Of a stretch of 64,000 bases of DNA, positions 5,447 to 63,113 are shown piece by piece. Under the pieces are notes generated by a model. That model saw only the letters and a list, made by a program, of their open reading frames with translations. It searched no databases and had not been told where the DNA came from. The position numbers were made by a program, and so were the translations under genes. Numbering within the stretch: position 1 is the first letter of the stretch; every line of letters begins with the position of its first letter. The DNA comes from an uncultured Gammaproteobacteria bacterium. GTDB lineage: Bacteria; Patescibacteriota; Patescibacteriia; Magasanikbacterales; JBBTQS01. Location: positions 21,367 to 85,366 of the forward strand of contig CAZVIA010000003.1 of assembly GCA_964627525.1 (NCBI GenBank), read 5' to 3'.

Positions 5447-5475
5447 TTGACAAAAGTGCCTAAATATGATATAAT
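5447..5475 (+). promoter_or_regulatory. perfect consensus sigma70 promoter, TTGACA-17 bp-TATAAT
   Basis: TTGACA at 5447-5452, a 17-nt spacer, and TATAAT at 5470-5475. The SD AAAGGGAGA lies 5 nt upstream of the ATG at 5536. Confidence 0.7.
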
Positions 5476-5535
5476 ACTATCAATTCGTGTGCTGACTTTG
5501 GCATTGTCAGCCACAACAAAGAAAGGGAGACAGAC

Positions 5536-5946
5536 ATGGAAGGGTTTTTTTACAATCAGTTGGCAGAAGGTTTGTTGCTGGGTATTTTCTCGGGAATCCT
5601 AGTCTTCGTTATCTGCTTCGGCAGAAAGGTGGGGATCGACTGGGCGTATGAGGAGATCAAAGGCAAGCTCGTAGTCGCAGCGTTCACGATGTTCGCGGCG
5701 GGATTCCTCATGATGCAGAGTTACCATGTGGGGCAGATGAACGAGTTCTACTATCTTGCCTACACGCACAACGACGTCTGGACAACTAACGTCCCGATTG
5801 TGGCGCCGTGGGGTTACTTGCTCGGAATGCTGGTGACAACCACTGCAGTGTCGATCGTGGGGGTTAGTTTCTTGAGTCTTGTCGAGTGGTGGTACGCTCG
5901 GCAGGTTCGCATGTCACCGCGCAACGGCAACGGCGGCACGGCGTAG
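5536..5946 (+). CDS. GC-rich (about 55-60%) small integral membrane protein, function unknown
   Basis: Clean ORF with 3-4 TM helices. GC content and codon usage differ sharply from its neighbours. It has its own promoter, SD and terminator. Confidence 0.6.
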   Translation: MEGFFYNQLAEGLLLGIFSGILVFVICFGRKVGIDWAYEEIKGKLVVAAFTMFAAGFLMMQSYHVGQMNEFYYLAYTHNDVWTTNVPIVAPWGYLLGMLVTTTAVSIVGVSFLSLVEWWYARQVRMSPRNGNGGTA

Positions 5947-5987
5947 ACTCCGACAGTCGCGCGCCGTCCTCAATAAGCCACAACACC

Positions 5988-6040
5988 GCGCCCCAGTAAG
6001 ATCGTCACAGGTCTTGCATCTGGGGCGTTCTTTTTTATTT
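5988..6040 (+). terminator. rho-independent terminator
   Basis: An 8-bp GC stem (CGCCCCAG/CTGGGGCG) followed by TTCTTTTTTATTT. Confidence 0.6.
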
Positions 6041-25830: not shown

Positions 25831-26901
25831 TTAACTATTACCTTTTTTAATATTACAAGGTCTACACAAGAGTTGTGCATTTGAAAGCACTGTTCTACCC
25901 CCTTTACTCCACGGATCTACGTGATCCATAGAAAGCTCTTCAGTGTAAAAGTATTTATTACAAATTTTGCATTTATATTTGCCTTCATTGTTAGGCTTTT
26001 GTTTTTTTAAGAATTCTTTTTTATCATCAATAGAAAATAGTCGTTTATCATCAACACTAATATTTTTCACTATAGCTTGGATAATGTCTTCGATCTCCTG
26101 TGCCTTATTAGTCAACTTTGCATCATCGCTTTTTAAATATTTTTTGACTCTTAAATTAATTTCATCTTTATTCTTTTTCCATATTACTGAATCTTTGATA
26201 TATTTTCTGGCCAAGTTGAAATAAATATCCAACTGGCCATAACTGTTAAATATATTACTTATAAATTTAATGTATTTAGTAATATCTTTTTGATCAGTAA
26301 CAAACGATTCATTTTGGTTTTGACTTACATAATCATTTATATTAGCTGTGTCTTTTGGTAAATTTCTTAAGATCATTAGTAGTTTTAATATTTTATATTG
26401 ATTTTTTCCACGACTATTAGAGCCCAACACTTTTATGGCATCTCTGTCTTGTTTTGCGTATGTAGATAACCCTCTTAAATATTCACCATAAAAAAGACCA
26501 TTTAACACTTCGTAGTTAGATAAAGGTACGCCTAAGGTGTTTATTCTTCTAAAGATTTCTCTTTTCAACTCCTCCTTTCCTTCACAAATTATTATTGAGA
26601 GTTCGGTTTTATTTATTATTTCTTGAGTTTTTTTGTCTGTCTGTTTCCAAAGTTTTTCCTCGAATAGTATGTCATTTTCAATGAATTTTTTTATTGCTTC
26701 AATTCTTTGTTTTCCATCTAAAACTTCTAGTATGCCCTTTTTATTTTTCCAAAAGTAAAAAGCTGGCAATGGAATTCCTTTAACAATACTGTCTACAACC
26801 AATATTTGCTTATTAGTGTCGTAGACAATTTCCCTTTGAAGTTCAATATCACTAATAATTTTGCCATCCCTTACTTCCTCGTATAAGTGTTTTATGTTCA
26901 T
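25831..26901 (-). CDS. DUF262 (ParB/GmrS-like) N-terminal domain fused to a C-terminal HNH nuclease; GmrSD-like putative restriction endonuclease
   Basis: LEVLDGKQRIEAI, the DGQQR motif of DUF262, at the N-terminus. The C-terminal CKICNKY...DHVDPWSKGG...CRPCNIKKG is an HNH motif. Confidence 0.65.
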   Translation of the reverse strand: MNIKHLYEEVRDGKIISDIELQREIVYDTNKQILVVDSIVKGIPLPAFYFWKNKKGILEVLDGKQRIEAIKKFIENDILFEEKLWKQTDKKTQEIINKTELSIIICEGKEELKREIFRRINTLGVPLSNYEVLNGLFYGEYLRGLSTYAKQDRDAIKVLGSNSRGKNQYKILKLLMILRNLPKDTANINDYVSQNQNESFVTDQKDITKYIKFISNIFNSYGQLDIYFNLARKYIKDSVIWKKNKDEINLRVKKYLKSDDAKLTNKAQEIEDIIQAIVKNISVDDKRLFSIDDKKEFLKKQKPNNEGKYKCKICNKYFYTEELSMDHVDPWSKGGRTVLSNAQLLCRPCNIKKGNS

Positions 26902-27905
26902 ATTTTTGGATTTTTAAACAAGTCCTTGTTTTTTATTATTATTCTTTCAAAAGGTGCTTTAAATGGCTTTCCGTCTTTTTCAATCCATAGTGTCGCTTTG
27001 TCTCCTTTAAATCTAATGGTTTTTTCAACCTGCACACCTTTACCTATAATTTCAAATTGGTCAGGGTTATATTTTGTTAAAAATGTTATTGGAACTCCCA
27101 TCTCGCCTTTATAATCATATGGTATGTTTTTTGTTTTGTTGACATCAATTCCATTGTAATTATAGTAATTTGGATATTTCTCGGAGTCGTAAGATTCGGT
27201 CAATATCATTCTGTCGTGACGATACGATACATCTAGGTTTGTATACCATTTACATGCTCTAGGCACAGAACCTTCTGGGTTTTTTGAAAGTAGTAGAGTA
27301 TTATCAATTAAACGAAAGCCAGTTAACTGCTTGGCGTAACCAAGCCACATTTTGTCGTCTTTTATGTGACTAAAGATTTCTTTATATGTTATGGCTGTTA
27401 AGGGGCCAATGACTAAAAAATTCATTTTATTTTTAAACATTGTGTCAATGAATTCTCTAAATTGACTAAATGGCGGGTTTGTTATTACTAAGTCATATTT
27501 TGAATAATCAACATCCTGAAATTTAACACCTTTACCTGTTGCAGGATTATATCCGCTGGCAGAAATAGATGATATGTCATAAGTGTCAGCGTGAGCCACT
27601 AGAAATTTAACAAAATTACATTTAATCAAAGACAACTCTTTTTCTATTTTCTTTTTTGATGCTTTAATATTTATTTTTTTTATTGTTCCTCCGCTGTCTA
27701 GTAGATTTGATGGGGTGATGTAACCTTCTTCTTTGAAAACAATTTCTTCTTCATAACTTTCATCCCAATCACAAGGGCATAATATTCTTTTACTTTTTAG
27801 TTGCTCCTTATATAAAGAAACTTCTTTTGATATGTCTTCGTATAAAGTGTAGAATTCATCGTCCTTGGCCTTATTTGCTTTGTATAGTGATTTTTTAGTG
27901 CCCAT
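26898..27905 (-). CDS. EcoRI-methylase-family N6-adenine DNA methyltransferase
   Basis: Collinear with M.EcoRI as recalled: DEFYT, CPCDWDE, DLVITNPPFSQFREF, KMWLG, CKWYTNLDV, GVPITFLTKYNPDQFEII. Overlaps the downstream nuclease gene by 4 bp. Confidence 0.8.
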   Translation of the reverse strand: MGTKKSLYKANKAKDDEFYTLYEDISKEVSLYKEQLKSKRILCPCDWDESYEEEIVFKEEGYITPSNLLDSGGTIKKINIKASKKKIEKELSLIKCNFVKFLVAHADTYDISSISASGYNPATGKGVKFQDVDYSKYDLVITNPPFSQFREFIDTMFKNKMNFLVIGPLTAITYKEIFSHIKDDKMWLGYAKQLTGFRLIDNTLLLSKNPEGSVPRACKWYTNLDVSYRHDRMILTESYDSEKYPNYYNYNGIDVNKTKNIPYDYKGEMGVPITFLTKYNPDQFEIIGKGVQVEKTIRFKGDKATLWIEKDGKPFKAPFERIIIKNKDLFKNPKI

Positions 27906-27919
27906 ATAAATTTATTTTG

Positions 27920-28030
27920 GGCAAACAAAAAAGGGTGCCCGAGTTGCGAACACACCTTTCAGAATCCTTGCGGATCCCTACAAGCGGTTTTCGGGACACC
28001 CATCTCTACGCTCGTAGAGCGGGTGCCAAA
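27920..28030. other. GC-rich structured intergenic element of about 110 bp between divergent genes
   Basis: Nested complementary segments GGGUG-CCCGA...UCGGG-A-CACCC, and a CTCTAC-gctc-GTAGAG hairpin; composition is unlike the flanks. Confidence 0.3.
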
Positions 28031-32224: not shown

Positions 32225-33832
32225 ATGAAAAAAGATAATAGTAAAACTTATTTCCTTTATGCACGAAAAAGCTCAGAGTCAGAAGATAGACAAATGCAAA
32301 GTATTGAAGATCAAACAGAGAAATTGGAAGAGCTAGCCAAGTTAAAAGGATTAAAAATCAAAGACATATTTACAGAAGCAAGATCAGCCAAAAAACCAGA
32401 CAATAGACCTGCTTTTACTGAAATGCTTGATAGGTTGAGTAAAGGCGAAGCTGATGGTATTTTGTGTTGGAAAATAAATCGTCTTACAAGGAATCCTATT
32501 GATAGCGGTAAGTTAAGTTGGATGCTGCAACAAGGAATTATTAAATCAATTCAAACTTATGATAGGGAATATTTACCAACTGATAATGTGATTCTTTTTA
32601 ATGTTGAGAGTGGAATGGCTAATCAATATATTTTAGATTTGAGCAAAGATGTAAAAAGAGGAATGGAAAAAAGAATAAGAAGTGGTTGGAAAAATGGACA
32701 AGCTAATATTGGTTATTTGAACCATAGAGATCCAATAGAAGGTTTAAAAACAATTATTAAAGACCCCGATCGTTTTGGTTTGGTGAGAAAAATGTGGGAC
32801 ATGATGCTAACAGGAAATCATTCTGTTTCAGATATTTTAGATATAGCAAACAATAAGTGGGGTTTTCGCACGAAAAGAACAAGAAAAAAAGGTGGGACAC
32901 CATTATCAAAAAGTACTCTTTATAAAATATTCAATAGTCAGTTTTATGCTGGGATTATTGAGCATAAAGAAGAAGTGATCATTGGTAAACATGATTCAAT
33001 GGTTACATTGGATGAATTTGACCGTGTTCAAGAATTACTAGGCAAAAAAGGGAAGCCAAGACCTAAAACACATAAGTTTCCATATACAGGCACAATAAGA
33101 TGTGGTGGTTGTGGTGCAATGATTACAGCAACAAAGAAAAGGAAGTATATAAAAGTTGATAATTGTTATAGGGAATATGTTTATTATCACTGCACAAAAC
33201 AAAGAAAGTATGTTAAATGCAATCAACCAAGTTTGAAAGTTGAAGAGTTGGAAGAACAAATAGATAAACAACTACAAAGTATTACTATTTTGCCAGAATT
33301 TAGAGATTGGGCTTTAGAAGCTCTTAATGAAATGAATGATCAAGAGATTCTTGATAGAGGTAAGATATATGAATCACAACATAAAACATTAGTACAAACA
33401 CAAAGAGAATTGGATAATCTAACTAAGATGAGATATAGAGATCTTATAGATGATGAAATGTATGTAAAAGAAAAAATAGATTTACAAAATAAAATTACAA
33501 AACTAGAAGTTTCGTTAAGAGATACAGAATCAAGAGCGAAAGAGTGGTTAGAATTAACTGAGAAGACTTTTGATTTTGCAACTTATGCAAGAGTTCATTT
33601 TAAAAACGGAGATTTAGAGACAAAAAAACAAATCCTTAGAACTATTGGAACTGAATACACACTAAGGGACAAAGTATTGGAAATTAAGCCAAAAGAATGG
33701 TTAGTGCCTATTAAAGAGGGTTATCCAGCACTTGAAGAAAAATATTACGCATTAGAACTGGATAAAACCCCTATAAATAAAGAACAAAACAAGGCTTTTG
33801 CCTTGCTTCGTTCACAATGGTTCGGGGACTAG
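32225..33832 (+). CDS. large serine recombinase (phage-integrase type)
   Basis: N-terminal resolvase catalytic domain YARKSSESEDRQMQSIEDQ...RLTRN, a recombinase domain, a Cys4 zinc ribbon (CGGCGAM...HCTKQ) and a coiled-coil tail. Confidence 0.85.
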   Translation: MKKDNSKTYFLYARKSSESEDRQMQSIEDQTEKLEELAKLKGLKIKDIFTEARSAKKPDNRPAFTEMLDRLSKGEADGILCWKINRLTRNPIDSGKLSWMLQQGIIKSIQTYDREYLPTDNVILFNVESGMANQYILDLSKDVKRGMEKRIRSGWKNGQANIGYLNHRDPIEGLKTIIKDPDRFGLVRKMWDMMLTGNHSVSDILDIANNKWGFRTKRTRKKGGTPLSKSTLYKIFNSQFYAGIIEHKEEVIIGKHDSMVTLDEFDRVQELLGKKGKPRPKTHKFPYTGTIRCGGCGAMITATKKRKYIKVDNCYREYVYYHCTKQRKYVKCNQPSLKVEELEEQIDKQLQSITILPEFRDWALEALNEMNDQEILDRGKIYESQHKTLVQTQRELDNLTKMRYRDLIDDEMYVKEKIDLQNKITKLEVSLRDTESRAKEWLELTEKTFDFATYARVHFKNGDLETKKQILRTIGTEYTLRDKVLEIKPKEWLVPIKEGYPALEEKYYALELDKTPINKEQNKAFALLRSQWFGD

Positions 33833-33891
33833 GATTTGAACCTAGATTGGCGGTACCAGAAACCGCAGTCCTACCATTAGACGATCCCCGA
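33818..33891 (-). tRNA. tRNA-Gln (anticodon CUG)
   Basis: Cloverleaf with acceptor TCGGGGA/TCCCCGA, a 3-bp D stem, anticodon loop TTCTGGT, T-arm CTAGG-TTCAAAT-CCTAG, and an encoded CCA. Overlaps the recombinase 3' end by 15 nt. Confidence 0.85.
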
Positions 33892-39631: not shown

Positions 39632-40564
39632 ATGGCATCTAAATACATTCACACTTTAAAATTAAATAAAATTGATTGGGTGCATGTCACTAAATCTGAT
39701 CCAGAGATTTTGGAGGAGCTAACAGAGAAATTTGATTTAGATCCACAAGATGTACAAGAGGTGTTACCACCTAATCGTCGTTCAAAAATGGTCAAAAGGG
39801 AGGGCTATGTATTTTTGATTTTACATTTTCCTGTTTATAATCGTACAACTGGCAGAATGGTGAGCCATGAGTTGTACTTTTTTGTTACAAAAAACACATT
39901 GATCAGCATAAGTCCACAAGGCACTCCGGCTTTAACAAAAATTTATAAAGAAGTTCATGATGGTGATTGGCTTGATGAAGCTGGAAAGGCAAGTGAGTTT
40001 TTGTTGTGGATAATTCATGAATTATTAAATGAGGTGTTTCCAATGTTAAGGCATGTTGGAAATGATTTAGAGGAAATTCAGGATCAGATTTTTGAAGTAA
40101 AGCATAAGCACAAGAAAAATGTGCTGGAAATTTTGAGAATTAAAACAAACATTGTACTTGTAAAGCGTGCAATGCAACCACACAAAAATTTAGTGGAAAA
40201 ATTTGCTGATAATTTAAAGGGAACTGTTTTGGGTGGGGGAGTGAATTTGGAATATGAAACACAACACATTAGGGAGATTGCAGTTGAGTTGTGGCAGTTG
40301 TTGGCTTCTCAAGAAAGCACGATTAATGATTTGCACGAAACAAATGAGTCGCTGATTAATAGCCGAACAAATGATATTATGCGGACTTTGACGATTTTTT
40401 CTGTGATTGTTTTTCCTTTGACGCTGTTGGCTTCAATGTTTGGAATGAATACTGTGAATACTCCGATTGTTGGGCATGCAATTGATTTTTGGATGATTGT
40501 GATTGTGATGATTGTTGGAACTATTGGAATGATTGCGTTTTTCAGGGCGAAAAAGTGGATTTAG
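39632..40564 (+). CDS. corA: CorA-family magnesium/cobalt transporter
   Basis: Two C-terminal TM helices and the MFGMN signature. The internal Met at 39632 is taken as the start. Confidence 0.8.
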   Translation: MASKYIHTLKLNKIDWVHVTKSDPEILEELTEKFDLDPQDVQEVLPPNRRSKMVKREGYVFLILHFPVYNRTTGRMVSHELYFFVTKNTLISISPQGTPALTKIYKEVHDGDWLDEAGKASEFLLWIIHELLNEVFPMLRHVGNDLEEIQDQIFEVKHKHKKNVLEILRIKTNIVLVKRAMQPHKNLVEKFADNLKGTVLGGGVNLEYETQHIREIAVELWQLLASQESTINDLHETNESLINSRTNDIMRTLTIFSVIVFPLTLLASMFGMNTVNTPIVGHAIDFWMIVIVMIVGTIGMIAFFRAKKWI

Positions 40565-40674
40565 GTGGGGAAAATTTAATAATTATGCAAAAACATAAGC
40601 AGTTTAGCGACTGTTTGTTTTTATATTACCAACCATACGCTTTTATCGACACGTTTGTCTGTTTTGGAGTGGCT

Positions 40675-40703
40675 CTTGACAAAATCTTTAATTTGTGCTA
40701 TAC
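40675..40703 (+). promoter_or_regulatory. near-consensus sigma70 promoter, TTGACA-17-TATACT
   Basis: TTGACA at 40675-40680 and TATACT at 40698-40703. No ORF follows. Confidence 0.5.
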
Positions 40704-40709
40704 TAGTTT

Positions 40710-40902
40710 AGTCAATCAGGTGAAAGCCTTTATTGCTTGACCATGTTGGGTCAGGTGGGCAGAGATACGAAACCAGTCAAATGGGAGTAGGGTTTGGCCA
40801 CGGCATCAAAGGTGGAAAGCTGATTGTACTTTCCCGCTAGTTACAGGTCTGAAAACCTGGGCGGAAGAGGCGGTCTGAACATCGGATCGCCTATTTTTTT
40901 TT
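40710..40902 (+). ncRNA. candidate small RNA of about 190 nt, class unknown, with its own promoter and intrinsic terminator
   Basis: GC-richer than the flanks. Ends in an 8-bp stem (AGGCGGTC/GATCGCCT) plus T9 at 40868-40902. No ORF with an SD. Confidence 0.4.
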
Positions 40903-40914
40903 ATAAATTTTTAA

Positions 40915-41265
40915 TTTAAATAAAAAAGAAGGGGTTCCGTGGGAAAACCCCTTCTTTAATGCCTACTAGCTTTTCGTAGTGATAGTGATGGCATGCAGAG
41001 CTTCGTGTTACAGAAGGTCCTCACATCTACAAAAAGACTAGCTCAGCTAGGTTAGTAAGGGCTTGCTGCAGTATGACCAATGTATTTACTACACTTTCTC
41101 ACCCAAAGATAGGGTGCTCGCGGGATTCGAACCCGGGCTGCAGGGCTGATCAGGCCAACACCCAATCTCTTCCTCCGTTAATCGTCGCGCGGTTTCCAGT
41201 GGCAGACTGATGATAAGATAGCATGTTGGGTTTGGGTGTGCAAGAGGTGTGGGTTTTCAAGAAAT
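40915..41265 (-). ncRNA. candidate structured RNA on the minus strand containing a tRNA-like T-arm (GGTTCGAATCC); possible tmRNA-like or other RNA
   Basis: GC-rich in an AT-rich genome. The minus strand reads ...CCCGGGTTCGAATCCCGCGAGCACC... A perfect 11-bp hairpin (AAGAAGGGGTT/AACCCCTTCTT at 40926-40956) followed by a T-run on the minus strand acts as its terminator. Confidence 0.35.
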
Positions 41266-41317
41266 AGTTTTTTATAGTAAGATGCAGAAGGAGTTAAACT
41301 TGGGGAGGGTGTTTCAG

Positions 41318-41545
41318 ATGACGAGGTATTTTTTGGTTTCTTTGGCAATGGTGCTGATTGGTCTTGGGTCTGTTGTTGTAGATCGATTCTATGGTGTTTC
41401 ACCTTTTCCAAGTGGAGCACTGGCTGGTGGCGGTGTTGCTTTGGTTTTGGTTGGGTTTTGCAGTGCGGCGGCAATACTAAAGATGGTGGTAGCTCGTGAT
41501 CGTGACGCCCGTACAAATCGTGTAAATGAGGAAACACGGACTTGA
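41318..41545 (+). CDS. GC-rich small two-TM membrane protein of about 75 aa
   Basis: GGAGGGTG SD followed by the ATG at 41318. It encodes MTRYFLVSLAMVLIGLG... GC is about 50%. Confidence 0.4.
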   Translation: MTRYFLVSLAMVLIGLGSVVVDRFYGVSPFPSGALAGGGVALVLVGFCSAAAILKMVVARDRDARTNRVNEETRT

Positions 41546-41659
41546 ACCTATGCATAACAGCATAAACAAACTCCATGTTGGCGTCCTTGAGAGGGGAGGG
41601 TCAGTATGGAGTTTTGTGATTATTTGGGGCGGTGGTGTTTTGGTCAATTAATTAAAAAA

Positions 41660-41980
41660 TTAGTCCCACAATGTCCCGTCCAGCCCTAAAACAATACCTA
41701 ACCAAAGTGCGACGATAAAAGCTAATGCGCTAAATAAAAAAACCAAAAAAATTGTTAATTTCTTTTTGGGGCGAATAAAGTTTTTAAGATAAAAAGATAA
41801 AATACCCAATGCTCCAGCTAGGGGTGTAATAATTAAAGGTCTGATTTTCCAGAGTTTTCCCCAATTTGGATCTGGTTCATCAACTGAAAATACAAGAAGA
41901 GAAATAATAATCAAACCTATTACTGCGCCTAGGAGCATTCTTTTAAGTAGTGATTTTGGGCTTGGGGGTTGTGGGGTCAT
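41660..41980 (-). CDS. small membrane protein of 106 aa
   Basis: Three predicted TM helices. Confidence 0.45.
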   Translation of the reverse strand: MTPQPPSPKSLLKRMLLGAVIGLIIISLLVFSVDEPDPNWGKLWKIRPLIITPLAGALGILSFYLKNFIRPKKKLTIFLVFLFSALAFIVALWLGIVLGLDGTLWD

Positions 41981-42129
41981 AAATCATTCTCACAAATCTA
42001 TTAACAAATTTTCCCTAAATTTAACCAAAAAATTTAATCATTCTAAAAACTTGACATTGTTATTTTGTTGTGTTAATGTTTTATGTCACGAAAGGTTTGT
42101 GGCAACTCTTTAAAAGAAGGAGGATAAAG

Positions 42130-42582
42130 ATGTCATTTGATCGGGCAAATATTGACCGTGCCATTGTGATGACTCAGTATGATTTGCGTGGTTTTCTTAG
42201 TCCTCTGGGTTTTAGGTATAAGGAGCACACACCTAAGACGTTGGATGCAACAACATGCAATCTTGTTGCTTTTGCTATTGGGTTGGGTAAAGATGATAAA
42301 ACACAATTGACTGAAAATGATTATGTAGATTATTTTACTAGTACTTATGATGAGTACCTTGCTATGTGTAAGCGGTTGGTTGAGGTTTGCGACTGTTCGC
42401 AGAAGGAGGCAATCCAACTGATCATCCAAGATATTGTTAGGCGTAGCAACCAAATGAAGGTTGAAGTTGCTGATGGCGATATGGAACCCTCTCCGTACCT
42501 TTTGCCTCTTTCCAAGGACAATCGTTGGGGAAGGGCAATTTGTGTCTTGGCTGAAGTATTTGAGGTTGACATCAGTAAATAA
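42130..42582 (+). CDS. hypothetical protein of 150 aa, GC-richer than its surroundings
   Basis: Strong SD GAAGGAGGATAAAG followed by the ATG at 42130. Confidence 0.5.
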   Translation: MSFDRANIDRAIVMTQYDLRGFLSPLGFRYKEHTPKTLDATTCNLVAFAIGLGKDDKTQLTENDYVDYFTSTYDEYLAMCKRLVEVCDCSQKEAIQLIIQDIVRRSNQMKVEVADGDMEPSPYLLPLSKDNRWGRAICVLAEVFEVDISK

Positions 42583-42656
42583 ACAATTTTAACTCTCTGT
42601 CTTAACACCCTAACAAGAAGCTTTGTGCTGTCTGAGTGCAGTCAAGGTTTCTTTTT

Positions 42657-44165
42657 TTAAACTCTCCCCAAAACCTGCCCATTCTCACCATCCTTAACAT
42701 CCCAACCTTTTTTCTTTAACAAATCCCGCAACTTATCAGAACTTTCCCAATCTTTGTTTGCACGAGCTTTGGCACGCTCATCCAAAATCTTTTGCACATA
42801 TTTTGGAATTTCGCCAGCACTAATAGCCCCACCACTGCCACTACCAGATCCAATCCCAGCCCCACTGCTGGGGTTTTTTATTTTATTTAATAAATTCAAT
42901 CCCAACACATCGTCCAAAATCAAAACCGTAGCAACAACTTCAGGATTTACATCACCAGATTTTCCAAGAGCTTTCCAAATAAATCCCAAAGCCTTAGAAG
43001 TGTTTAAATCATCATTAAAAGATTTTATAACTTGTTTGTACAGTGTTTCATCACGTTTAGACGCTGGCTTAACCAAACTTAATCGAGCAACTAATTTTTC
43101 TAAACCAGCTTTTGCACCATCTAAAGCATCCCAAGAAAAACTAATCTGCTTGCGGTAATGAGTTTGTAACAAAAAATAACGATAAGTCAAAGCATCATAA
43201 CCTCGCTCAATCACATCATTTAAAGTAATAAAATTCCCAGCAGATTTTGCCATTTTGGTTTCAGCCTCAGTTTTAGAATCATCCTTAGCCCCCGCTCCAG
43301 CACCACCACTAATAACAACAAACTCATTATGCATCCAAAACCGCGCAAACTCTTTACCAGTCGCACTCTCACTTTGTGCAATTTCATTTGTGTGATGAAT
43401 TGGAATATGATCAACACCACCGCAATGAATATCAATTGTCTGACCCAACTCTTTCATTGCCATTGCAGAACATTCAATATGCCATCCAGGAAAACCTTTA
43501 CCCCAAGGAGAATCCCATTCCATTTGTCGTTTTTTCGCTCCAGCCTTAGCCCCACCAGCCCCAATAACATCAGAAAATTTCCACAAAGCAAAATCAGTCG
43601 CACCACGCTTTTCCTTAATATCAACACGCGCGCCTTCTTGAATTCCTTTTATATAATCAGCCCCAGCCAATTTTCCATAATCAGCCAACTTAGAAGTATC
43701 AAAATAAATTCCATCAGAAGTTTTATATGTAAAACCTTTTTCCTCCAAAACTCCAACCAATTTAATTTGTTCCTTAATATAATCAGTGGCACGAGTAAAT
43801 TTTGTTGGCTCCAAAATATTTAAATCCACCAAATTTTGTTGAAAAGCCTTAAAATAAAATCTAGACAATTCCCAAACATCCTTTTTCTCTTTCAAAGCCG
43901 CGCGCTCCAACTTATCTTCACCATCATCTGCATCATCTGTTAAATGCCCAACATCTGTGATATTCATCACATGTTTTACTTTAAATTTATTCATCAGCAA
44001 AACTCGTTTTAAAATATCTTCAAAAATATAACTGCGCAAATTTCCAATGTGCGCATAATTATAAACAGTTGGTCCGCAAGTGTATAAATTTATAGTCTTA
44101 CCTTTCAAAGGTTTGAAAGTTTGCTTTTTGCGTTTGAGTGTGTTGAAAAGTTTTAATTCCATATG
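42657..44165 (-). CDS. cysS: cysteinyl-tRNA synthetase
   Basis: CGPTVYNYAHIGNLRSY (HIGH) and KMAKSAGN (KMSKS). The start is probably the internal MELKLFN; the annotated upstream extension is not conserved. Confidence 0.85.
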   Translation of the reverse strand, partial: HMELKLFNTLKRKKQTFKPLKGKTINLYTCGPTVYNYAHIGNLRSYIFEDILKRVLLMNKFKVKHVMNITDVGHLTDDADDGEDKLERAALKEKKDVWELSRFYFKAFQQNLVDLNILEPTKFTRATDYIKEQIKLVGVLEEKGFTYKTSDGIYFDTSKLADYGKLAGADYIKGIQEGARVDIKEKRGATDFALWKFSDVIGAGGAKAGAKKRQMEWDSPWGKGFPGWHIECSAMAMKELGQTIDIHCGGVDHIPIHHTNEIAQSESATGKEFARFWMHNEFVVISGGAGAGAKDDSKTEAETKMAKSAGNFITLNDVIERGYDALTYRYFLLQTHYRKQISFSWDALDGAKAGLEKLVARLSLVKPASKRDETLYKQVIKSFNDDLNTSKALGFIWKALGKSGDVNPEVVATVLILDDVLGLNLLNKIKNPSSGAGIGSGSGSGGAISAGEIPKYVQKILDERAKARANKDWESSDKLRDLLKKKGWDVKDGENGQVLGRV

Positions 44166-44226
44166 CATATTGCTATGTGTATATACTAACACAACAAATA
44201 TATTTTGTGGTATACTATTTTCATCT

Positions 44227-45315
44227 ATGGGATTATTTTCAAAATCAAATGAACATGTTTTAGGTGTAGATATTGGTGCTGGTGGAGTAAAAATGGTTGA
44301 GCTTGTAAAAAGTGGCAAGCGACCAAAACTTTTTACTTATGGAATTGCAAATGCAAGTGCGCCAATTATCCACATGCAATCTGAAACTCCTGAAGAAGAG
44401 GAAAAAGCTATTGGTTTACAAGCTACGCGTTTGCGTAAGGTTTTTGATGCGTCAAAATGTCAGGCAACAAAAGCTGCAGCTAGTATTCCTGTGTCGCATG
44501 TTTCTAGTCTAATGGTAAGAGTTCCAGAAGGTGAGCCAAAAACAATGCAAGAGCAAGCAGAAGCTCAAGCAATAAAATTATTACCATACCCTGTGGAAGA
44601 AATGGTTTTGGACACAAGAATTATGAAAGAGCGAATGGCGGATCTTGGTGAGAAAAAATCTAAAAAAACACGTGAGGTAATGGTTGTGGCAACTTTAAGT
44701 AAAATTGTTGAGCGTTACAGTAAAATTTTTGCAAAAGCAAATATTCCTTTGGACAGTTTAGAAACAGAGGCTTTTGCTTTGGTGCGTGCTTTGGTTGGAA
44801 ATGATCCATCAGCTGTTATGATTGTGGATATTGGAACTGAACGTACAAATTTTTTCATGGTAGAGCGCGGAATTCCAAGAACACAAAGAAGTATAAGTTT
44901 GGGTGGGGCTACTTTTACAAAAACTATTCAGGAAATTGTGCAAGTGGAAAAAGATGAGGCAGAGCAAATTAAAAAAGACTTAAGTAGATCTGAAAATCCT
45001 GATGCGCAAAAAATTGTTCGCGAGTTGTTGGATAGAAGTTTGAAACCAATAATCAAGGAAATTGATTATGGTTTTATGTTATTTTCAGAACAAATCCATC
45101 GCAAAAATACCAAACCAGAGAAAATTATCTTAACTGGTGGTAGTTCTGGAATTCCACAACTTGGTCATATGCTTGAACAAAATTTTCAGATCAAGTCATA
45201 TATTGGAGATCCATGGGCACGTGTTTTGCATGCAAGTGATTTAAAACCAGTTTTGCATAGTATAGGTCCGAGAATGAGTGTAACACTTGGGTTGGCAATG
45301 CGTTTGGCGATGTAA
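44227..45315 (+). CDS. pilM: type IV pilus assembly ATPase-fold protein PilM
   Basis: VLGVDIGAGGVKMVEL actin-like N-terminus. The internal Met start is at 44227. Confidence 0.7.
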   Translation: MGLFSKSNEHVLGVDIGAGGVKMVELVKSGKRPKLFTYGIANASAPIIHMQSETPEEEEKAIGLQATRLRKVFDASKCQATKAAASIPVSHVSSLMVRVPEGEPKTMQEQAEAQAIKLLPYPVEEMVLDTRIMKERMADLGEKKSKKTREVMVVATLSKIVERYSKIFAKANIPLDSLETEAFALVRALVGNDPSAVMIVDIGTERTNFFMVERGIPRTQRSISLGGATFTKTIQEIVQVEKDEAEQIKKDLSRSENPDAQKIVRELLDRSLKPIIKEIDYGFMLFSEQIHRKNTKPEKIILTGGSSGIPQLGHMLEQNFQIKSYIGDPWARVLHASDLKPVLHSIGPRMSVTLGLAMRLAM

Positions 45316-54577: not shown

Positions 54578-54958
54578 ATGTTAAAAAAAGTTTTATTAGT
54601 AGAAGATGACGCTTTTCTCATTAGATTTTATAAAGCAAAATTAGAGCAAAAGAAATTTCAAACAGTTTCTGTTGAAGATGGTGGTCTTGCAAATCAAACA
54701 GCAAAAGAAGAACAACCAGATGTAATTGTTTTGGATGTGATGTTGCCAAATAAAAATGGTTTTGAAATTTTGAAAGATCTTAAAAAAGATTCTGCAACTG
54801 AGAAAATTCCTGTTATTGTTTTTACAAAATTATCACAAGAGTCAGACAAAAAAGAGTTAACAAGATTGGGTTGCCAAGCTTACATGGTTAAAACCGAACA
54901 CAAATTAGATGATTTGATTCTTGAAATTGAAAAAATAACAATGGGTGGCAAAGCCTAA
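54578..54958 (+). CDS. single-domain response regulator (CheY-like receiver)
   Basis: LLVEDD, VIVLDVMLP and a conserved K; a full receiver. Confidence 0.8.
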   Translation: MLKKVLLVEDDAFLIRFYKAKLEQKKFQTVSVEDGGLANQTAKEEQPDVIVLDVMLPNKNGFEILKDLKKDSATEKIPVIVFTKLSQESDKKELTRLGCQAYMVKTEHKLDDLILEIEKITMGGKA

Positions 54959-54959
54959 A

Positions 54960-55420
54960 AAAATAAAAAAAGAGCCAGACATTACGGAGTGTTATGCTTC
55001 TACGTTTTGTCTGGCCCCTCTCCAGGGGAGTTGTGTGTTTTGCCTAGATCAAGAGCTTGTCATTGCCCTAACTGTTCACAGTGTCTCTTTCTTTTGCTTT
55101 TCAGACAATTCTACCGAGGTAGAAGGGGAGGGAAAAACCAAGGTAGTTTGCCTCAGGCTGGGAGGAGAAACTTGTTGGTAAACAGCAGCTCTTGCAGGCA
55201 CTCTAGACTAACACATTGTCCTGCGAGGAGCACGCGCCGTCGGCGTACTAGAATATTTCAGTGTCGTTGCAGGGGAGCTAGACACCTTGACACTCTTCAA
55301 TCCCTTTATCCGTTCTTACAGGACTAGATACGCGCGCACACTTCCCCAGCACACACGCATCCACACTTTGGAGCAACATAGTGTGCAGGGACAATTTGCA
55401 AGAAAATTATAAATCTTTTT
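54960..55420. other. GC-rich (above 50%) non-coding island of about 460 bp; candidate large structured RNA or a decayed foreign gene
   Basis: No credible ORF (no SD, junk-like composition) and several strong local hairpins (GCCAGACA...TGTCTGGC; CCCCT-ctcc-AGGGG; ACGCC-gtc-GGCGT). Confidence 0.3.
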
Positions 55421-55483
55421 GAAAGTGTTGTCAAGTCCTAGTTGTGTATAGTATTATATATATAGTAATTAAGAAAAAAATTC

Positions 55484-62549: not shown

Positions 62550-63113
62550 ATGGACATTCTAAGATGGTGGGGCGGTTTGTTCTACTTGTTTAACAAGGTT
62601 TTCTTGTGGAGAATGATCCGTGTACTGGATTCGAACAAGAAAAAGTGGCAGATATCTGCTTGGTTAATTTACCTTTTGGGTTTGCCTCCCTGGTTGGTGC
62701 TTTTTGCGTTCAAAAGTGAGTGGATAGTTTTCTGTGTTGAGCTAGGTGGTGCACCATCAATGGCACTTGGTTTGATCATTGGAATTCGTGGAAAAGGCAA
62801 AGAACCAAAATGGATGAATCTAATTGCATACATTGGTGTTGTAATTGGGATTGTCTTGAGTGTTTATCATGTTGGATTTTTTACTAAATTCACCCAAGGA
62901 CTTGAGCTAATGGTTTCTATTGGATTTCTTGTGGGTACAATATTGCTCGCAAAAAAGAATTTTAATGGATTCATTTGCTACATGTTCATGAATGCTGCAA
63001 TGGGCACATTGTTGGTTGTAGACGGAGAATGGTTGCTTGCAGTTCAGCAAGCAATATCAATTTGTTTTGTTTTCGACAGCTACAGGGTTTACAAAAAAAT
63101 CCAATCGGGCTAA
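62550..63113 (+). CDS. hypothetical polytopic membrane protein
   Basis: Five or six TM helices. Confidence 0.4.
   Translation: MDILRWWGGLFYLFNKVFLWRMIRVLDSNKKKWQISAWLIYLLGLPPWLVLFAFKSEWIVFCVELGGAPSMALGLIIGIRGKGKEPKWMNLIAYIGVVIGIVLSVYHVGFFTKFTQGLELMVSIGFLVGTILLAKKNFNGFICYMFMNAAMGTLLVVDGEWLLAVQQAISICFVFDSYRVYKKIQSG

Follow-up and report, generated by a model that had tools for sequence, protein, structure and literature searches.

A candidate stand-alone small RNA gene and a putative decayed tRNA-derived fragment in the hypervariable corA-cysS interval of a Patescibacteria contig

Introduction

What occupies the gap of about 600 bp that follows corA on contig CAZVIA010000003.1 of assembly GCA_964627525.1? 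The question arises within a stretch of 64,000 nucleotides (nt) of this contig, which was analysed as a whole and is called the window throughout (34.4% guanine plus cytosine, GC, overall). There, corA (39632-40564, plus strand) precedes the gap, cysS (42657-44318, minus strand) lies convergent with it, and the small genes ORF75, ORF106 and ORF150 (ORF, open reading frame) stand between the gap and cysS. An earlier note, made from the sequence letters alone, had read the gap as a cluster of GC-rich non-coding RNAs, comprising a promoter-driven transcript on the plus strand and, on the minus strand, a longer RNA with a tRNA-like T-arm. The homologues of CorA are named Uhrbacteria, Magasanikbacteria and Patescibacteria, and the window is a contig of the Patescibacteria, or Candidate Phyla Radiation (CPR), bacteria with tiny genomes in which post-transcriptional regulation is almost unexplored.

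The answer that we favour, with moderate confidence, is that the gap holds a stand-alone small RNA (sRNA) gene on the plus strand together with a decayed tRNA-derived fragment on the minus strand, both lying in a hypervariable slot. Transcription from an extended -10 promoter would start at about 40710, pass through a Y-shaped domain and a hairpin, and stop at a terminator to yield an sRNA of about 190 nt. The minus-strand core, for its part, would be a decayed tRNA-derived fragment that has lost its D-arm and the greater part of the 5' acceptor strand by deletion and in which both remaining stems have become mismatched.

The plus-strand small RNA candidate

The plus-strand unit carries its own start and stop signals. 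A sigma-70-type promoter with a TG-extended -10 element, TTGACA-17-(TGc)TATACT, scores 11/12 at 40676-40704 and places the predicted start at about 40710-40711; the earlier note had set this promoter one base off, at 40675-40703. Sites scoring at least 11/12 occur 12 times in the window versus 2.9 ± 1.6 times in dinucleotide shuffles, and the TG-extended promoter class occurs 4 times versus 0.18, an enrichment of more than 20-fold. Nine of the 12 sites precede ORFs or a tRNA gene, and the promoter at 40676 is one of only three with neither an ORF of at least 50 amino acids (aa) nor a tRNA gene within 400 nt downstream. At the other end, the intrinsic terminator at 40868-40902 (plus strand) consists of an 11-bp stem with a 3-nt loop (40868-40892), followed by A and nine T, which bears out the former proposal of a plus-strand RNA of about 190 nt ending at a GC stem and T9.

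Between these signals, the sequence at 40710-40902 (plus strand) would encode an orphan structured sRNA composed of a Y-shaped domain, a hairpin and the terminator. In the minimum free energy (MFE) fold, the Y-shaped domain is a three-way junction of 120 nt (40710-40830) closed by the helix AGUCAAUCAG/CUGAUUG.UAC, so that the first ten nucleotides of the predicted transcript (AGUCAAUCAG) sit inside the closing helix, and the hairpin at 40834-40864 lies between this domain and the terminator. The fold is well defined, the MFE structure making up 25% of the ensemble, and it is unusually stable (z = -4.4 for the whole RNA, and -3.5 when the terminator is left out; 0 of 200 shuffles equally stable). 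The features by which a stand-alone sRNA gene is judged, namely its own promoter, a structured non-coding body, an intrinsic terminator and an intergenic position, are all found in this unit.

Obviously, a gap of this size might also encode protein. The longest ORF in it measures 45 aa and none within the plus-strand RNA exceeds 35 aa; the plus RNA has a period-3 signal-to-noise ratio (S/N) of 0.38 and the minus-strand segments have ratios of 0.27-1.15, versus 3.7-10.6 for the neighbouring genes, GC-rich ones included. The earlier statement that the gap contains no credible ORF therefore stands. A decayed protein-coding gene, which that note had named among the findings that would overturn its reading, or a set of small-protein genes, is hardly credible on the evidence of this periodicity test and the absence of homologues. 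Such a view could appeal to a 37-codon ORF at 41165-41055, which overlaps the tRNA-like core and has a TTG start with GGAGG 6 nt upstream, and to the small hydrophobic genes that the variable corA-cysS interval often holds. Nevertheless, the 37-aa peptide, searched exhaustively with phmmer against 1.84 billion proteins, gave one match only, a spurious one to a tandem-repeat protein whose score is the sum of eight weak copies of one motif; scans with Pfam and PHROGs were empty, as was tblastx against the corA-cysS intervals of relatives. The GC-richness that had been noted for the RNAs is not specific to RNA in this genome, because two nearby GC-rich segments (ORF75 and a gene at 5536-5946) are protein-coding.

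No described family accommodates the plus RNA. Neither the whole-window Rfam scan at gathering thresholds nor a scan of the RNA body alone at E<=10 returned a match for it, which leaves 6S RNA and signal recognition particle (SRP) RNA, both entertained before, and likewise RNase P RNA or a riboswitch, without support. A covariance model of the plus RNA (R2) recovered only the element itself, with no second copy, from the window and eight relatives' loci; its k-mers in viral contigs gave chance matches inside phage ORFs only, and blastn found no match in the phage and plasmid collections. Pairing of the plus RNA with the translation-initiation regions of seven neighbouring genes was no better than that of shuffles (RNAduplex), and the literature on CPR transfer-messenger RNA (tmRNA) and non-coding RNA yielded nothing specific. 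Within the searched data, the plus RNA is specific to this species. Read from its sequence, the unit makes a convincing case for a genuine stand-alone sRNA gene outside the described RNA families. Its gene structure lies open in the window; as to function, it would most likely serve regulation, as an accessory RNA that acts in trans or binds protein.

The same signals could be arranged for another purpose, in which the element is a cis-regulatory leader (riboswitch or attenuator) and the terminator at 40868-40902 gates ORF75 at 41318. A promoter, an aptamer-like three-way junction and an intrinsic terminator in succession are the typical architecture of a transcriptional riboswitch; moreover, ORF75, which comes next on the plus strand, lacks a promoter of its own scoring at least 9/12, and at the corA locus of one relative (L009) the same promoter type is followed by a leader of about 230 nt before an ORF. 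However, 416 nt separate the terminator from ORF75, a distance that takes in another strong hairpin and the tRNA-like fragment in antisense, no alternative antiterminator pairing was found, no riboswitch in Rfam matched, and a -10-like TATAGT at 41274-41279 could serve ORF75 directly. We therefore consider a leader improbable and retain the stand-alone sRNA gene. Resemblances to the M-box, T-box, yybP-ykoY and ZTP riboswitches amounted to short motifs seen by eye, unsupported by the models, and were set aside.

The tRNA-like core on the minus strand

The tRNA-like string that the earlier note had pointed out in the interior of its minus-strand RNA, CCCGGGTTCGAATCCCGCGAGCACC, is present at 41136-41112 and covers a T-arm and the 3' strand of an acceptor stem. 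Its 11-mer GGTTCGAATCC is an exact canonical T-loop box, and every other exact copy in the window belongs to a real tRNA gene (a copy at 62627 that differs by one mismatch lies antisense within an ORF and is due to chance); by extrapolation, an exact box is expected about 0.01 times per window by chance. In tRNA register the core extends over 41112-41163 (minus strand) and, read 5' to 3', consists of a 5' acceptor remnant of five nucleotides, GGGUG (41163-41159); an anticodon arm, UUGGC-CUGAUCA-GCCCU (41158-41142), with 3/5 stem pairs, a 7-nt loop with U33, the anticodon triplet GAU (41151-41149) and, at position 37, C and not a purine; a 5-nt variable loop, GCAGC, between this arm and the next; a T-arm, CCGGG-UUCGAAU-CCCGC (41136-41120), in which C49 and C65 are mismatched; the 7-nt acceptor 3' strand GAGCACC (41119-41113); and a discriminator C (41112). 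It lacks a D-arm and a CCA end. In its dimensions the core thus corresponds exactly to the 3' two-thirds of a tRNA, with five nucleotides retained from the 5' strand.

It had been reported before that no matching 5' acceptor strand could be found, and this proved wrong: GGGUGUU (41163-41157) forms 7/7 pairs, one of them G-U, with AGCACCC (41118-41112). The helix continues outwards by another 6 bp between AGAGAU (41170-41165) and AUCUUU (41110-41105), giving an extended helix at 41105-41170 (minus strand), and the acceptor-like stem therefore has no free ends. The fold has a z of only -2.1, and the MFE structure chooses a non-tRNA pairing for the T-arm segment. A covariance model of the core (R1) aligned without gaps over 37 nt (model positions 20-56) with the tRNA-Asn of the window, an alignment that takes in the anticodon arm, the variable loop and the T-arm. 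Under relaxed criteria (a GTTCRANNC loop, at least 4/5 T-stem pairs and 7/7 acceptor pairs) 0.42 matches arise per shuffled 64-kb window; since the relaxed arrangement is this common by chance, the case for a tRNA origin rests on the exact T-loop box and the canonical spacing.

As a side observation, the tRNA-derived fragment stands between two copies of a 7-nt direct repeat, TTGGGTG (41165-41159 and 41106-41100, minus strand). The repeat could be a matter of chance, a duplication footprint, or the reason why CACCC can pair with the upstream or the downstream GGGUG.

Is the core still a tRNA gene? It has no D-arm and only 3/5 anticodon-stem pairs, ARAGORN found no tRNA or tmRNA at the core in its standard, 80%-threshold (-ps80) or mitochondrial/armless (-mt) modes, and the Rfam tRNA family RF00005 gave no match in the region, where tRNA-Sec reached 15.4 bits at E=6. 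For a split or intron-containing tRNA, no 5' half was found within 3.4 kb upstream of the core. The exact GGTTCGAATCC, the tRNA-register spacing and the ungapped alignment with tRNA-Asn, on the other hand, are what a tRNA-derived fragment should show. The earlier suggestion of a tRNA 3'-half remnant accordingly survives in part: a remnant fits best, and what remains is more than a 3' half, running from the anticodon arm to the discriminator.

The permuted or atypical tmRNA that had also been proposed finds no such footing. The Rfam tmRNA family RF00023 matches only the 15-nt T-arm (8.5 bits versus a gathering threshold of 47), and ARAGORN called no tmRNA in any mode. Pair 3 of the acceptor is G3-C70 in both possible pairings (upstream GGGUGUU, downstream GGGUG), with no G3-U70; the acceptor strand runs on into UAUCUUU, without CCA; and the frames downstream of the core end in AASPY or ...AELVFL (one stop each) and ...TTKS (two stops), none of them like known tmRNA tags. 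As in the earlier note, which could not find a canonical tag ORF, no plausible tag reading frame is present. Permissive Rfam scans of the region and of the core by itself left only noise, an outcome which the same note had held, when joined by an absence of transcription, to speak against its RNA cluster. The best whole-element alignment of the core in Rfam was to mascRNA-menRNA (RF01684), at 13.3 bits and E=2.5 against a gathering threshold of 42.5, which is not significant.

This last alignment, being the best whole-element Rfam match, nourishes a second view of the core, as a functional tRNA-like module or miniature tRNA mimic that serves as a processing signal or as a decoy for tRNA enzymes (RNase P, RNase Z, the CCA-adding enzyme, TruB), with the mascRNA of MALAT1 and the tRNA-like domain of YrlA as its analogues. 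A 7-bp acceptor-like stem on a canonical T-arm is a minimal RNase P-type substrate, and in Mycobacterium smegmatis YrlA it is a 7-bp stem that determines cleavage by RNase P (PMC4201824). Furthermore, the 6-bp extension of the helix and the GC-rich (59.5%), non-periodic flank suggest a maintained structure, and a strong dedicated terminator lies downstream. Against this stand the insignificant mascRNA score, the absence of a D-arm or of any G18-G19 equivalent for docking of the T-loop, the C-C mismatch in the T-stem, acceptor ends buried in a continuous helix with neither a single-stranded 3' tail nor CCA, and a thermodynamic fold that prefers another pairing. No homologues were found, and TROVE/Ro, RtcB or other partner genes are absent from the neighbourhood: the genes within 4 kb of the core are the VirD4-like gene, ORF177, CorA, ORF75, ORF106, ORF150 and CysRS, none of them TROVE, and no TROVE/Ro60 gene occurs within these 4 kb or in the 26 kb examined. 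A functional mimic is, in our judgement, unlikely, and the decayed fragment is preferred.

What transcript, then, would contain the core? An intrinsic terminator for the minus strand at 40925-40957 has 12 perfect pairs (arms 40925-40936 and 40946-40957; 14 with G-U) followed by T6, and it is assigned to the minus strand because T6 follows the stem there and only TTT on the plus strand; a perfect 11-bp hairpin had been given at 40926-40956, and it extends to perfect 12-nt arms. A weak terminator-like hairpin of 5 bp with a T-run at 41038-41050 (minus strand), about 60 nt downstream of the core, is a possible earlier 3' end. For the start, the best local candidate, TTGCAC-17-(TGc)TATCTT at 41215-41243 (minus strand, 7/12), is without statistical support, its class numbering 264 in the window versus 300 ± 18 in shuffles, and a second candidate at 41647-41619 (10/12) belongs to a class no commoner in the window than in shuffles. 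Among the features of an sRNA gene named above, the minus-strand unit shows only the terminator; with no promoter better than chance, the length and the independence of the minus-strand RNA of about 330 nt proposed earlier are both unsupported. Because no minus-strand promoter is supported and no terminator belonging to ORF106 itself precedes 41050 or 40957 (none was found in 41500-42700), the minus-strand transcript may instead be the untranslated stretch at the end of the ORF106 transcript, running antisense to ORF75 and stopping at 40925.

The corA-cysS interval in relatives

Scanning the GTDB species genomes with CorA revealed no close relative, and loci with CorA homologues at 52-58% identity were compared. 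The closest of them keep dnaX, the VirD4-like gene and corA upstream and the cysS-pilM cluster downstream, and differ in what lies between. In L007, cysS follows corA directly across an interval of 75 nt (L007 4925-4998); in L009 the interval contains one unrelated ORF (L009 1715-2605); and in L005 and L006 it contains 2.7 kb of unrelated, GC-rich small genes (L005 4922-7640). Neither blastn nor tblastx detected similarity between the interval of the window and those of L005, L006, L007 and L009, and the relatives' intervals held no tRNA or Rfam matches. The corA-cysS slot (window 40565-42657) is hypervariable, ranging from 75 nt to 2.7 kb with unrelated content in each lineage. Several groundwater-type metagenomes contain the same contig at about 100% identity; it is present in the samples JGI 3300009374 and 3300009405, ENA ERZ23499079 (SAMN11854493) and SRR8062331. 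Four near-identical contigs differ solely at 40910, in the spacer between the two terminators, which is uninformative.

Several of the inserts start with the same promoter type (TTGACAAAAT...TGnTAnnnT). A likeness between the corA terminator of L005 and the plus-strand terminator of the window was considered and rejected, as the two share only an 8-mer.

The variability of the slot speaks against its housing a housekeeping RNA, and suits accessory material that was gained recently. This bears on the proposal that the gap encodes divergent housekeeping RNAs, the plus RNA being 6S or SRP RNA or the minus RNA a permuted or atypical tmRNA. It is true that the seeds of RNA families represent CPR genomes poorly, that the length of the plus RNA (about 190 nt) and the strength of its promoter are as expected for 6S, and that a permuted arrangement could be built from CACCC and the GGGUG downstream of the minus-strand T-arm. 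Yet there is no Rfam match even at E<=10, ARAGORN reports no tmRNA with permuted forms included, G3-U70 and CCA are wanting, and the candidate tags are AASPY followed by a stop, or longer peptides with atypical ends. The 6S reading was rejected since the MFE structure is a Y junction with two 3' hairpins and not a rod with a central bubble; the SRP and RNase P readings, in turn, were rejected for lack of the GNRA and AGCA motifs of SRP domain IV and of the RNase P GGAAAGUCC. Moreover, the locus is missing at the syntenic position in 4/4 relatives. Taken together, a housekeeping RNA at this place seems very improbable, and an accessory sRNA gene beside a tRNA-derived fragment remains our explanation.

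Further observations in the window

Among the genes next to the gap, ORF75 (41318-41545, plus strand) encodes a two-helix membrane protein that flanks the region and is an orphan, the homology search matching only ORF75 itself; it is GC-rich through its content of Gly, Ala and Val, and has native codons (period-3 S/N 4.1; GC at third codon positions, GC3, 0.33). ORF106 (41660-41980, minus strand; period-3 S/N 3.7) encodes a membrane protein and is the nearest upstream gene on the minus strand. These two genes converge across 41545-41660 with no intrinsic terminator between them, and their transcripts probably overlap in antisense, because neither strand has a terminator in 41500-42700. ORF150 (about 42130-42582, plus strand) belongs to a Patescibacteria-wide family without a Pfam domain, whose 115 homologues (about 150 aa, 40-65% identity) have varied neighbours (GluRS, RpoC and others); around these homologues the contexts differ and no similar RNA lies nearby. 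CysRS (42657-44318, minus strand) is called at 501 aa within a maximal ORF of 553 codons, compared with 461-473 aa in relatives, and has several low-complexity inserts rich in Gly, Ala and Ser, e.g., GAGGAKAGAKK, GGAGAGAKDD and SGAGIGSGSGSGGAISAG.

A third unit of similar build lies at 54950-55434 (minus strand), flanked by the genes of a response regulator and of a DsbA-like protein. A perfect TTGACA-17-TATAAT promoter at 55434-55406 precedes an ORF-less RNA of about 430-440 nt with 48% GC, which ends at a strong terminator at about 54990-54950 (13-bp stem and U-run); its fold z is -3.3, its period-3 S/N 1.95, and in Rfam it meets noise only. As a potential novel structured RNA, it arguably has more to recommend it than the elements of the corA gap.

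At 5536-5946 (plus strand) lies a gene for a membrane protein of 136 aa, served by a perfect TG-extended promoter of its own (5447-5475) and by a terminator (window 5447-6030). In a genome of 34% GC, this gene peaks at 61% and has a GC3 of 0.73; because its composition looks foreign, it suggests recent horizontal acquisition. The segment 26900-33900 is a probable integrated element. Here, a large serine recombinase with Resolvase, Recombinase and Zn-ribbon domains (32225-33829) has its end inside tRNA-Gln (33818-33891, minus strand) or abutting it, and is preceded by hypothetical genes and an EcoRI-type adenine methylase (26901-27905), and in relatives dnaX adjoins the conserved block directly, without this segment. 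Just upstream of the methylase gene, at 27922-28013 (minus strand), R1 matched weakly (14.2 bits, E about 0.2) a long hairpin, UGGGUGU...GCACCCU followed by a U-run, which is probably only a terminator-like hairpin.

Discussion

The origin of the minus-strand fragment deserves a word of its own. Its source is probably a tRNA gene, or else a displaced piece of tRNA such as integrating elements leave. It could have come about by internal deletion of a resident tRNA gene or as an integration footprint of the kind described in PMC4383910; displaced tRNA fragments are a known footprint of island integration (PMC4383910). At present it would be inert or would form a stable hairpin in the tail of the ORF106 transcript.

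Several findings weigh against our interpretation of the gap. No homologue of either element was found in the searched data, which leaves every structure proposed here without support from covariation. The 6-bp AGAGAU/AUCUUU pairing and the intact 7-bp acceptor-like stem show somewhat more order than would be expected of a random relic, and an exapted function is conceivable. An origin as an integration footprint is conjecture: no full tRNA with the same 3' sequence turned up in the window, the species-representative genomes or the metagenome set, no tyrosine integrase lies nearby, and no convincing att-like direct repeats flank the corA-cysS interval. The 21-mer of the core (T-arm and acceptor) matched no tRNA among 185,579 species genomes, and therefore no donor isotype can be named; it had 0 viral matches, and its one match in a genome and one in a metagenome are the same archaeal coding sequence, hit by chance. 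The negative searches are weak, as the metagenome collection missed even the contig of the window itself and as relatives were covered at the level of loci. R1, searched against the window and the eight relatives' loci, returned self-matches and the T-arms of real tRNAs, and nothing in the relatives' loci. Finally, the relatives share at most 58% identity in CorA, and a conserved RNA could have relocated in their genomes.

A bolder proposal would make the plus RNA and the RNA at 54.95-55.4 kb founding members of Patescibacteria-specific classes of abundant structured RNA (e.g., functional stand-ins for regulatory RNAs that are unrecognised so far in CPR bacteria, such as 6S) and, at the same time, the minus-strand core a maintained miniature tRNA mimic that tRNA enzymes process, a bacterial analogue of mascRNA. 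We hold this combination to be a long shot.

If expressed as predicted, the plus RNA adds to the few candidate regulatory RNAs of CPR/Patescibacteria, and two strong promoters of the window (40676, plus strand, and 55434, minus strand) are predicted to drive ORF-less structured transcripts outside the RNA families. For annotation, the tRNA-derived fragment is not to be labelled tmRNA or tRNA; rather, it marks the corA-cysS junction as a recombination-prone slot that gathers lineage-specific small genes.

How do these elements compare with known systems? With tmRNA (ssrA, two-piece permuted forms included), the core shares a T-arm, CGGGUUCGAAUCCCG, that matches the T-arm of the model, and a GGGUG downstream of CACCC; it differs in that the match spans 15 nt at 8.5 bits versus 47, in the lack of G3-U70, CCA, a tag frame and pseudoknots, and in the negative result from ARAGORN. 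The mascRNA/menRNA family (RF01684) is vertebrate. The core resembles it in its length of about 52-56 nt, a 7-bp acceptor-like stem, a canonical T-arm, a reduced body and a place within a longer transcript, and departs from it in ends that are paired into a longer helix, in showing no sign of processing and in a score of 13.3 bits versus 42.5.

YrlA Y RNAs are recognised by a position on the same strand as, and within 4 kb of, a Ro60 (TROVE) gene, by the motif GNCGAAN0-1G, and by D-like and T-like arms (PMC4201824). Like them, the core has a T-arm whose T-loop is canonical and which runs on into a longer helix, in a transcript that is not a tRNA; unlike them, it has no GNCGAAN0-1G motif, no D-arm and no Y-RNA match in Rfam, and its arms come in a different order.

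To our knowledge, few sRNAs have been characterised in CPR bacteria. From stand-alone bacterial sRNA genes the plus-strand unit differs in having no family, no homologue, and no pairing above shuffles with the start regions of neighbouring genes; it agrees with them in its strong promoter, its length of about 190 nt, a helix that takes up the 5' end, a terminator hairpin with a U-tract, and the lack of coding potential.

A close parallel for the core lies with the displaced tRNA fragments and pseudogenes at island sites (Islander, PMC4383910), with which it shares a partial tRNA comprising the T-arm and the acceptor 3' strand, a location in a hypervariable intergenic slot, loss of function as a tRNA and accumulated mismatches. 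Unlike those fragments, it is unaccompanied, within the window, by a regenerated tRNA partner, a tyrosine integrase or a flanking direct repeat. And unlike a simple displaced 3' fragment, the core keeps five nucleotides of the 5' acceptor strand, a feature that internal deletion of a whole tRNA gene fits better.

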